A stretch of DNA of 64,000 bases, taken from assembly GCA_963664705.1 (NCBI GenBank), contig OY761556.1, forward strand, positions 2,176,001 to 2,240,000. The letters are read 5' to 3'. Positions 33,989-36,161 of the stretch are shown piece after piece; the first letter of the stretch is position 1; each line of letters opens with the position of its first letter. Position numbers and translations under genes: made by a program. The notes under the pieces are model-generated. The model saw only the letters and a list, made by a program, of their open reading frames with translations. It made no database searches and had not been told where the DNA came from. Source of the DNA: Acidobacteriota bacterium. GTDB lineage: Bacteria > Acidobacteriota > UBA6911.

Positions 33989-34231
33989 CGCCCCAGCGGG
34001 GCGGTCAGAACGTAGCCGGGGGTGAAGCGAAGCGAACCCCCGGATAGCATGAAATTTAAAGGAGCCCCGGAGGGGGCGAAAGATATTTTCGTTCCTCTAC
34101 ATAACCTAAAGCTGAACATTGGAGCGGGGCTCACTGTTTCTGCCGCCCTTTCAGGGCTCTTTCTCGCGCTTATCTCCACCGGGGGTTCGCTGCGCTTCAC
34201 CCCCGGCTACGCTCTTTCGGCCCTCCGGGCC
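33989..34231. repeat. REP doublet (REPIN-like) palindromic element
   Basis: 33-bp arms at 34011-34043 and 34179-34211 are inverted with one mismatch. Each arm is itself a hairpin and is flanked by short GC hairpins. Confidence 0.8.
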
Positions 34232-34253
34232 CTGGACTTTGGACAAAAACAAA

Positions 34254-35633
34254 TCATGTTTTAGCGAAAATGGTTAGATTTTGGGCCATTTTCGCATAAA
34301 TGGGCTCCTTGACAGACGTTTCAATGATTTCTGTGCGTAGCAAGGTCAGTAAATCGAGCAAAGAAACGCGTGAACTGTTCGATCGCCATTTCGGAAGAGG
34401 GATGCGACAAAAATCGCGACCGGGCCCGAAACAATGCAACCCTGCCAGCAAAAGCATGGAATACGAAGCTACTGTCAAGGCCGGCTGTTTCGATACGGAC
34501 GACATCGACCAGACCTGAGCCTGTCCGACGCTAAGCACAGTTTTTTCGTCTCTATGATTGACTTCGATTTGCCAACGATCAAAGTAGCTTTGGATCAAGT
34601 CTCGGACGGGGCTGTAGGTGTCGGTCGACAGCAAATAACCTGGCTGACGAAAATTTCGGGAGGCATTGGGCGAGAGCTTATATGGTATGGGTGCAATAAC
34701 AATTAATCGCAATTGCCGAGTGCCTGCCCCACGTCGCCAAAGAACGGCTTCCACTATCTTGTAACGAATACGGCGTCTTCTTTGGCCCATCCAGATTTTG
34801 CACCATTTAAAAACAGCGCGCTGGGAATCGAGGACATCCTTAGGAGAGAAGATGTCGATACTATATCGCCGGCCACTGCCCTCGGGTGCAGGGAAACACA
34901 GGCGGGCGTCCTTCCGACATCGTGTCAGCAACTCTGTCCGGTCGAGAGGGTTTTTATAAAAACAGCGGTTACAGAAGCTCGCATCTGCGACGATTCGCAA
35001 TGTGCGATTTGTTGCCTTCATCTTGTCTAACTGGTTCCGGTAGTTTTGAATCCATTCCAACGATTGTGTGGAAAGATTATTAGCATTTTTCAATCGCCTG
35101 TATTCTTCTCGCTGCTGGTCACTGGCACGGATCCCGGGTTTCTTTACGACGGGTACGTGTCTAAAGGCCACTGGATAACCCCGCGCAGAGAATTCACCCT
35201 CGCAATGGTGCGGAAACAGCAAGGATCCTTGCAGAAACCGAAGCCCCCAAATCATGTTTACTTGAAACGGAGGCGACAAAGGATCTCTTTGCCAGCTGGC
35301 CCCTGGGATTTTTTTTCCGCTCTTTACTATCCGAGTGTCATCTACTGCTAGAACCACAGGCTTGTTCGGATATCGATTCAGATATTCTTCAGAGATCCTG
35401 TCAAACAATGCCTGCTCGTCCCAATGACTACGCGAGTAAAACTTGTAATCTGCGCTCCAGTCTTCCTGATTCCGCCCTTGCACACAGATCATCTGCGAGA
35501 TCGTCCTTCGACCCAAGGCCGAAGGCCACGTCAAAGCGTGGTCAATTCCTCGCTTCAGTGTCCGTGCTTGCTTAAAAACATCCTTCCAACTCTGCTCCAA
35601 CAAGGAACGGTAGAAGGGCAGCAGCATGATCAC
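34254..35633 (-). CDS. DDE transposase
   Basis: LAVDDT, IVADASF and YFDRWQIEVNHRDEK (YREK-like) motifs. Confidence 0.9.
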   Translation of the reverse strand: MIMLLPFYRSLLEQSWKDVFKQARTLKRGIDHALTWPSALGRRTISQMICVQGRNQEDWSADYKFYSRSHWDEQALFDRISEEYLNRYPNKPVVLAVDDTRIVKSGKKIPGASWQRDPLSPPFQVNMIWGLRFLQGSLLFPHHCEGEFSARGYPVAFRHVPVVKKPGIRASDQQREEYRRLKNANNLSTQSLEWIQNYRNQLDKMKATNRTLRIVADASFCNRCFYKNPLDRTELLTRCRKDARLCFPAPEGSGRRYSIDIFSPKDVLDSQRAVFKWCKIWMGQRRRRIRYKIVEAVLWRRGAGTRQLRLIVIAPIPYKLSPNASRNFRQPGYLLSTDTYSPVRDLIQSYFDRWQIEVNHRDEKTVLSVGQAQVWSMSSVSKQPALTVASYSMLLLAGLHCFGPGRDFCRIPLPKWRSNSSRVSLLDLLTLLRTEIIETSVKEPIYAKMAQNLTIFAKT

Positions 35634-35983
35634 TCTCCTTGCTTCAGAGCAAAGACGTTCTTGTCCGTTCGCAGAAAGCGATCGTGGCGACGTACCTTTT
35701 TCACTAAGGATGAGACCACGGACTCTCTATCCAGTTGTTTACCAAAGACCTTCTCAATACGTTCCAGGATTTCCGTAATATGTAGCGGCTTGCCTGCCCG
35801 TTGAAGTATGTCGTATACCATATCGATCTGTGACATACTCCCTGCCGTACGCTGCTCTTTCACGGAATCGGGATTCTTTAACTTTCGAATTGCACGTAGC
35901 TGGGCATCGAGTGCCACCTCGAAGGCATTAAGCACAGCGAGTTGGATCGGATCTTGTAGTTCTAGCGGATCTAGTTTCTTCAT
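35630..35983 (-). CDS. IS-borne HARE-HTH-like winged-helix protein
   Basis: DMVYDILQRAGKPLHITEILERI..F.RTDKNVFAL pattern; GGAGG RBS; stop codon overlaps the transposase start. Confidence 0.75.
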   Translation of the reverse strand: MKKLDPLELQDPIQLAVLNAFEVALDAQLRAIRKLKNPDSVKEQRTAGSMSQIDMVYDILQRAGKPLHITEILERIEKVFGKQLDRESVVSSLVKKVRRHDRFLRTDKNVFALKQGE

Positions 35984-36161
35984 GGCATTAACCTCCGTTG
36001 CAGAGATAATGCCACAACTGCGTATGTATGTATAGCAAATAACAACTTAACATACGCAAATGTCCAAAGTCCAGGGCCCTCCGGGCCTGTTGCTTCACTC
36101 GCGTCGCAGGGCTTAGAGCAAATAATAGGCAGCATTAGCCGGGACGCCGGCGCTACCAGTA

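Follow-up and report, generated by a model that had tools for sequence, protein, structure and literature searches.

DDE transposases normally leave a target duplication of fixed length, IS701 elements carry a transposase gene only, and in the insertion sequences (ISs) IS1 and IS3 a small upstream gene for a DNA-binding protein, InsA or OrfA, is coupled to the transposase gene and controls it. Certain IS1182-family members are said, in Siguier's reviews, to duplicate a whole hairpin structure. The element considered here lies at positions 34232-36074 of a 64,000-nucleotide stretch, referred to as the window, of contig OY761556.1 (positions 2,176,001 to 2,240,000) from an Acidobacteriota bacterium, assembly GCA_963664705.1; it is 1,843 bp long with a GC content of 48.8% compared to 53.2% in the genome, and it is flanked on both sides by one and the same hairpin of a repetitive extragenic palindromic (REP) sequence. 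We interpret it, with a probability of about 0.7, as a multi-copy, two-gene IS from a sister clade of IS701 which duplicates whole hairpins, the transposase reading the shape of the target and the accompanying helix-turn-helix (HTH) protein serving as an autorepressor, not as a targeting factor.

In the accessible text of De Palmenaer et al. (2008, PMC2266710), IS701 is defined by a 4-bp duplication, the lack of the YREK motif (usually no Tyr is present) and a length of 1,400-1,550 bp. The window element, in comparison, has a 13-bp duplication (13-32 bp in its relatives), the full YREK motif, a length of 1,843 bp and two genes, all outside the bounds of IS701, and it matches four of the seven specified positions of the IS701 end consensus ---YACT-Y--YR. 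It is closest to the clade represented by the NCBIfam profile NF049999, with which it shares its best profile match, homologous terminal inverted repeats (TIRs) and a sister position in the tree; however, members of that clade leave duplications of 4-5 bp, and the hairpin duplications of 13-32 bp, the second gene, a basic loop and a length of 1.8-2.4 kb set the present group apart. The DDE residues, the full YREK motif and a Tn5-like fold are likewise found in the IS4 family, whose duplications (about 7-13 bp) are fixed within each subgroup, whereas those of the present group vary between 13 and 32 bp and its scores against IS4 profiles are below cut-off.

The duplication of whole palindromes has a precedent in IS1630 of Mycoplasma fermentans, an IS30-type element with duplications of 19-26 bp (cited through PMC2853133 and PMC3317919), which, judged from the title of its report and that figure, works like the present element in this respect. 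Unlike it, IS1630 is a single mycoplasma element with no regulator cassette mentioned in those passages, and the window transposase has no IS30 profile match. Sequence-independent targeting of hairpins is described for IS1272/TnSha1 of the IS1182 family in the available parts of Furi et al. (2016, PMC4923244) and Wan et al. (2017, PMC5678879), and pathway b in Fig. 13 of the latter draws the duplication of a whole stem-loop, exactly as found here; IS1272 itself, on the same accounts, deletes the hairpin, leaves no duplication and has a transposase of another family, whereas the present element copies the hairpin. The excerpted text of Tobes and Pareja (2006, PMC1525189) places all copies of ISRm22 (IS4 family), ISPpu9/10 and ISPa11 in REPs in a fixed register, but these ISs break the REP, with repeats of 0, 2 or 6 bp, ISRm22 at the palindrome axis, and they follow a sequence consensus; the window element shares the REP and the fixed register, copies the hairpin intact and belongs to a family without a sequence consensus. 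New here are the division of labor between the two proteins, the matched operators and the candidate loop. A literature search found no description of the clade or of its cassettes, its coverage lying largely outside subscription journals and supplements, where ISfinder-type tables could hold the group.

The original prediction for this locus, which claimed perfect 14-bp TIRs, a 13-bp palindromic target duplication, a 117-aa winged-helix gene coupled to a DDE transposase and an inverted repeat in the leader, was borne out in each of these parts: the TIRs are exact reverse complements, GGCCCTCCGGGCC stands on both sides of the element, the two open reading frames (ORFs) overlap at GTGA and the inverted repeat is present at the positions given in the table. 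Its alternative parse of a 15-bp TIR with an 11-bp duplication is disfavored by the family targets, as the base pair outside the TIR is C...G in just 13 of 43 distinct targets, and TIRs of 16 bp or longer are ruled out by copy 3. Insertion had also been placed into the REP hairpin; the hairpin is indeed the target and is duplicated whole, but the insertion site is at its foot and not inside it.

The genome (G000) is a single contig holding four copies of the element (C1:220263, 2210232, 2523294 and 6055923). The three copies outside the window differ among themselves by 0-1 nt, the window copy is 99.7-99.9% identical to them by BLAST, and the encoded proteins are identical across all copies, a near-identity which suggests recent movement. 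All four have a 13-bp duplication in the same REP register, the terminal 5-bp stem and 3-nt loop; one target differs in sequence (GCGCCTTCGGCGC) while retaining the same 5+3+5 shape. Both orientations are used in this genome, as one of the four copies is turned around with respect to its target. In empty paralogous REPs elsewhere in the genome the 13-mer is present once, and all four insertion sites fall outside ORFs of at least 140 aa.

The target rule was followed across relatives in a sample of 160 loci, 80 each from genomes (the best of 239) and metagenomes (the best of at least 592), which represent Acidobacteriota, Thermodesulfobacteriota, Verrucomicrobiota, Gemmatimonadota and further groups and include many copies within the same genomes; the TIRs, which are conserved across the family, were located by an anchored pattern search. 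Duplications of at least 12 bp, with up to one mismatch allowed, were found at 47 sites (43 loci and the four copies in this genome). They are 13-32 bp long and comprise 45 distinct sequences with nothing in common, yet the duplication is centered exactly on a hairpin loop at 42 of the 47 sites and within half a base of it at three more, and its ends lie at most 1 nt from the stem foot at 39 (5' end) and 38 sites. Its length tracks that of the hairpin (rho 0.72) and varies even for a single element, pairs of 19 and 30 bp and of 20 and 27 bp being examples; this variable, hairpin-set length was missed by the earlier reading of the locus. Of 254 distinct element ends, 216 have a perfect stem of at least 6 bp beginning no more than 2 nt away, as opposed to 39 of 4,403 windows taken from distant flanks and 31 of 5,080 shuffles; the palindromic or REP targets expected of homologous elements are what was found.

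It is very improbable that these long duplications are secondary, short ones having been made at REP arrays and lengthened in appearance by repeat recombination or assembly. Many loci do have non-matching or inverted flanks and the targets are often repeats; however, full duplications, each with its own sequence, are present in all four copies of this genome and in 30 of 41 large-contig loci, and the empty paralogous sites hold one hairpin copy. Loci lacking a matching duplication mostly have different hairpins on their two sides, and we tentatively attribute the missing duplications to collapsed assembly and rearrangement. In eight loci (L006, L007, L022, L042, L070, L083, L118 and L135) the flanks are reverse complementary over 20-42 nt, as though the interior of an inverted REP doublet had been exchanged for the element, or a recombination between two copies had taken place. 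A further set (L230-L237) comprises gene-less stretches of about 370-580 bp between inward-facing TIRs (G557:C2:162560-163080, C17:230490-231000, C24:486600-487330, C14 and C15) as well as stacked ends parted by single hairpins, all adjoining hairpins, with 58 exact TIR matches in one of the genomes; these are derivatives similar to miniature inverted-repeat transposable elements, or rearrangement scars.

The transposase matches DDE_5 in Pfam and, best of all, NF049999 (transpos_IS701_3) in NCBIfam at E = 3e-36, although its 125 bits are below the cut-off of 170; four clade members score 128-146, while three single-gene relatives pass with 309-366. Against NF033540 it reaches 48 bits (cut-off 150) and against the IS4 models 15-31 bits (cut-offs 152-250), and no IS30 or IS1182 family is found among its Pfam and NCBIfam matches at E up to 0.1. 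Across 24 aligned relatives the catalytic residues D98, D217 (23/24) and E357 are conserved and the full YREK motif (Y350, R353, E357, K364) is invariant, and the predicted model (mean predicted local distance difference test 84) matches the Tn5 transposase 4dm0 with an E value of 2.9e-9 and a template-modeling score of 0.49. Of 8,000 candidates that were scored, at least 5,235 are homologs with an E value of 1e-20 or lower; identity to the IS701_3-type relatives is about 25%, and in PLSDB plasmids no relative exceeds 26%. Trees were built in quick IQ-TREE runs with support from the Shimodaira-Hasegawa-like approximate likelihood ratio test (SH-aLRT) only, the first, partner-label tree leaving out L013 and exact duplicates and the second, loop tree containing 21 chosen clade rows and 15 others; the clade is split from the single-gene relatives at an SH-aLRT of 100. 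The TIRs of those relatives are homologous, CTCGA[CG]TTT compared to CTGGA[CG]TTT in the hairpin clade, and three of the relatives (L161, L164, L174) have 5-bp duplications at non-hairpin sites; in L162 the duplication matches at four of five bases, and the ends of L163 were not found. On sequence comparison the element is thus best called a sister of IS701 and not a member of it, and the undescribed subgroup that had been proposed stands insofar as a two-gene group lies apart from canonical IS701, below the NF049999 cut-off and with long duplications, while its gene pairing is dominant and not constant.

A basic, aromatic insertion at about residues 315-331, immediately ahead of the final strand of the catalytic core, is specific to the clade, as it is present in all 30 clade rows and in none of six outgroup rows; this loop is a candidate reader of the DNA junction. 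Five clade rows have the loop and no recognizable TIR. In the sub-clade of L167, L168, L171, L176 and L178 (G232, G115, G103), held together at an SH-aLRT of 100, the loop is present, the TIR pattern was not found, and most members adjoin an XRE-like HTH gene and a longer winged-helix gene; this sub-clade is possibly domesticated or part of larger elements.

Upstream of the transposase, the 160 loci carry the HTH gene in 146 cases, a DUF6788 gene in six, a DruA (DUF4338)-like gene in six and no gene in two, both of which look truncated; a further six loci, with an AbrB/MazE-like partner, came from whole-genome searches (251 and 301 genomes), this label being based on weak Pfam matches (E 0.001-0.005) in both genes tested. 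The pairing of HTH and transposase is dominant but not constant, with DUF6788, DruA-like and AbrB-like genes as substitutes, and on the transposase tree the distribution of DUF6788 requires four changes. An abutting hairpin is present at 200 of 231 ends in the HTH type, 9 of 9 in the DUF6788 type, 6 of 12 in the DruA-like type (9 of 12 at a 5-bp stem) and 4 of 7 in the AbrB-like type, and DruA-like types carry full duplications. The DruA-like partner in L066:584-1477 and L069:587-1477 passes the Pfam DruA model with 114-124 bits, is located inside an IS and not in a Druantia operon, and by eye its N-terminal part looks like a winged helix; DUF4338 is called a GNAT domain in the accessible part of PMC10853773 and is not linked there to IS control.

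The coupling of the two genes is tight: HTH stop and transposase start overlap in 104 of 144 homologs and lie within -4 to +2 nt of one another in 133 of 144. The AbrB/MazE-like genes (L166, L169, L170, L172, L244, L246) end in runs of A7-A10 overlapping the transposase frame, which likely give a -1 frameshift fusion with the transposase, as in IS1 and IS3. A coupled upstream gene, and in the AbrB-like variants even slippery A-runs, are shared with InsA and OrfA; unlike these, the partner is exchangeable and common to IS4-like, IS1634 and IS701-like transposases, and in the HTH type the coupling is mostly by stop and start codons, with no A-run (142/146). Eighteen longer proteins were considered as HTH-transposase fusions and left unused, as the ten inspected looked like read-throughs or frameshift errors.

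The 117-aa protein had been labeled HARE-HTH; its model is a winged helix and two of five homologs tested pass the Pfam profile (PF05066), but its own score of 23.1 is below the cut-off of 25.9. It has a weak NCBIfam match to RNA polymerase delta, and the best Foldseek matches to its model are a staphylococcal RNA polymerase chain at E 3e-3 and, at E 8.5e-3, the DNA-binding domain of Rok, with none at 0.001 or lower. Across the family the HTH leader has a motif of GTnn-GT, an AT-rich spacer and nnAC repeats overlapping the TTGAC box, found in 71 of 105 distinct HTH leaders (85 under a relaxed pattern), in none of 15 non-HTH leaders and in 10 of 5,300 shuffles. DUF6788 leaders have instead a TTTCA...TGAAA palindrome over the start codon (6/6, compared to 0/114 others), with a similar palindromic site before the transposase in five of six loci, and AbrB leaders have a CTAG palindrome (5/6 compared to 1/114); for the three DruA leaders no motif was defined. 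The putative window promoter lies where homologs have TTGACA and matches 8 of 12 consensus positions, and a promoter scan of the leader gave no minus-strand site over the scanner threshold. As the HTH motif overlaps the promoter and follows the gene, not the transposase, it is what would be expected of an autoregulatory operator, and the proposal of autoregulation through the inverted repeat fits because the motif is conserved and travels with the gene; the winged-helix protein is thus likely a portable autorepressor of the shared promoter.

Searches with an HTH profile found the same gene in front of IS4-like (L208, L209, L211), IS1634 (L182) and other IS701-like (L212) transposases and in a few loci without a transposase. 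On these other transposases the right arm of the motif is next to TTGAC in 5 of 5 cases by eye, and both arms are present in 3 of 5. None of five flanked ends of the IS4-like elements has a stem of at least 6 bp, and L212 has a 4-bp duplication, read by eye. Judging from these few controls, hairpin targeting does not require the HTH protein, nor does the protein suffice for it, and the proposal that it directs insertion to REP hairpins is not upheld, since targeting is kept with three other partners and the HTH occurs elsewhere without abutting hairpins. L208, L209 and L211 (G517, G458, G484) are separate two-gene ISs with the same HTH, TTGCCC-type ends and short related elements, their IS4-like transposase scoring below cut-off (120 compared to 152). 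More distant standalone genes with a helix and winged helix (L184, L185, L214), at which no transposase was seen, include two that adjoin long ORFs resembling, by eye, DNA-damage-inducible proteins.

The accessory protein might instead be an obligate partner in targeting or assembly, the winged helix binding to either the hairpin or the transposase, joining one to the other, and being replaced in this role by the other partners. Every intact TIR-bearing member observed in the clade has a partner gene, the single-gene relatives give 5-bp duplications, the genes are tightly coupled, the A-runs could frameshift into the transposase, and winged helices include binders of unusual DNA, with weak Z-alpha matches here (E about 0.1). 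We nevertheless regard such a role as unlikely, if worth keeping in view, as four unrelated partner families go with the same target rule, the HTH gives no hairpin targets on IS4-like and other IS701-like transposases, and the HTH, DUF6788 and AbrB genes each bring a distinct leader motif, placed over the promoter or the start codon.

The choice of the REP in this genome requires separate consideration. GTAG-type REPs, according to the available text of Di Nocera et al. (2013, PMC3733652), are GTAG-tagged, multi-copy palindromes that occur as doublets and flank a Y1 transposase gene. The target repeats are likewise tagged palindromes, with 53 matches to the pattern in the genome, they occur as doublets, and the family flanks on both sides the one match to a Y1 transposase, which is similar to REP-associated tyrosine transposases (RAYTs); this gene (G000:C1:1439725-1440420) is the likely source of the target repeats. 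The genome contains 4,858 perfect 5-bp triloop hairpins and 146 hairpins of at least 8 bp, and 77 of its 148 all-GC C-GNA-G hairpins are REP-linked. GNA triloops make up 40 of 79 target triloops, compared to roughly 17-21% genome-wide and 9 of 25 in the flanks of the same loci (Fisher p = 0.25), a share that probably reflects REP make-up. No new target sites were present in the four sequencing runs examined, in which a skip joint may derive from the empty paralogous REPs.

These circumstances bear on a further account, in which the target is not a free cruciform but a hairpin in transient single-stranded DNA, or a REP opened or bound by a host factor or RAYT, the sites being selected by their context and the transposase merely tolerating a long stagger. 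All four copies are in 5-bp REP hairpins beside a strongly folding REP doublet, the genome has a RAYT-like gene with these repeats on either side, and most family targets resemble REPs or terminators by eye. This account is nonetheless quite improbable in our estimation; the symmetric, loop-centered stagger (42/47) fits a folding of both strands, and the rule holds over several phyla and 45 target sequences, with both orientations used here.

Several points speak against the interpretation of a shape-reading transposase with a separate autorepressor. Since all four copies are in the REP hairpin despite the thousands of triloop hairpins available, shape alone fails to explain their placement in this genome and more is needed; a 5-bp stem is short for cruciform extrusion, and extrusion at the REP may be favored by the long doublet, by the stability of the GC-rich mini-hairpin or by a host factor. 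Two of the 47 duplications are off-center with imperfect stems, 38 of 254 ends have no 6-bp stem, and matching duplications are present in 30 of 41 large-contig loci, 7 of 21 other metagenome-assembled-genome loci and 6 of 54 metagenome loci, a grouping made from record names; DUF6788 and AbrB loci have no matched duplication at all, only adjacent hairpins being seen. No intact member with the transposase gene alone turned up in the TIR-bearing clade, so an accessory protein may be needed for functions beyond repression. The confidence of the loop model is low, with residues 323-328 below 50, the leader patterns were drawn after the sequences had been inspected, the covariation of the HTH operator arms (23/2 compared to 1/22) mostly tracks two clades, the controls with other transposases are few, and many loci are copies from the same genomes.

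As read from the sequences, the family makes hairpin-centered duplications of 13-32 bp, exchanges its partner gene together with the leader motif, and shares the HTH and its motif with unrelated transposases. A mechanism may be proposed as follows. From the Tn5 fold and YREK motif, the element would be excised by Tn5-like cut and paste; the transposase would then recognize an extruded hairpin or cruciform by its shape, and each element end would be joined to one arm of the extruded palindrome, at the 5' foot of that arm. As the two feet would be close across the junction at any arm length, active sites at a fixed spacing would produce a stagger as long as the hairpin, and gap filling or repair would copy the hairpin onto both sides. 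The basic loop near residues 315-331 may help in reading the junction, and the HTH protein would bind the arms around the -35 box, thereby restraining expression of its own gene and of the coupled transposase. The terminal REP hairpin would be the favored one in this genome, leading to intergenic insertions with the target regenerated on both sides.

The features of the locus are collected in Table 1. An alternative transposase start, ATG at 35627, is 2 nt past the HTH stop and would give 457 aa, the commonest length in the closest homologs. The REP doublet, with 45-nt arms that are 89% complementary and a fold z of -9.3, sits between convergent genes, one for an oxoacid oxidoreductase beta subunit and one of DUF520. 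Elsewhere in the genome, an adjoining 490-aa ORF begins 156 nt from the fourth copy (G000:C1:6057921 onward). Its start may resemble that of an IS1634-type transposase. A separate two-gene element at G000:C1:6821035-6822792 includes the 11-bp core of the same REP mini-hairpin in its leader; it was considered as a relative and rejected as unrelated, with no tblastn match and different proteins.

Table 1. Features of the IS and its target in the window (positions are those of the whole stretch).
Feature	Positions	Strand	Remarks
TIR, transposase-distal end, 14 bp	34232-34245		CTGGACTTTGGACA; family consensus CTG[GC]A[GC]TTT(GG/CT)ACA
TIR, promoter end, 14 bp	36061-36074		perfect reverse complement of CTGGACTTTGGACA
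Target-site duplication, copy 1	34219-34231		GGCCCTCCGGGCC; entire REP terminal hairpin GGCCC-TCC-GGGCC; once only in empty paralogous REPs
Target-site duplication, copy 2	36075-36087		GGCCCTCCGGGCC; same 13-mer as copy 1
DDE transposase, 459 aa	34254-35633	minus	D98, D217, E357; Y350-R353-E357-K364; basic loop at about 315-331
Winged-helix protein, 117 aa, likely autorepressor	35630-35983	minus	helix 10-36, flexible linker, winged helix-turn-helix 52-113
Putative promoter	36006-36034	minus	TATACA, 17 nt, CATTAT preceded by TG; predicted from leader comparison
Putative operator	36019-36058		inverted arms 36050-36058 and 36019-36027 around the -35 region; pattern GTnn-GT ... nnAC-nnAC-nnAC
Inverted GTAG-type REP doublet	33990-34231		5-bp mini-hairpin at each outer end

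A broader proposal, for which the odds are somewhat short of even, is that the transposase by itself reads four-way junctions through the basic loop, both site and footprint being dictated by the shape of the DNA, and that regulator-plus-operator cassettes (the winged helix, DUF6788 and AbrB, with the DruA-like protein as a possible fourth) are plugged into and traded among unrelated IS families, the present one being large and uncatalogued. If this were true, DUF6788 and the winged-helix family would gain a function and many transposase-linked DruA calls would be explained. On the comparisons made here, the cassettes already suggest a likely role for uncharacterized protein families, namely transposon autorepression with a predicted operator, and DruA (DUF4338) matches beside transposases need not be Druantia defense systems. 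The sister clade with its fixed 5-bp footprint serves as a control which differs in one candidate loop, making the origin of long, variable duplications testable. An integrase that reads shape would report the extrusion of cruciforms or hairpins in vivo and could serve for non-disruptive insertion; for the element itself the strategy is suitable, as it lands between genes and rebuilds its target on both sides.

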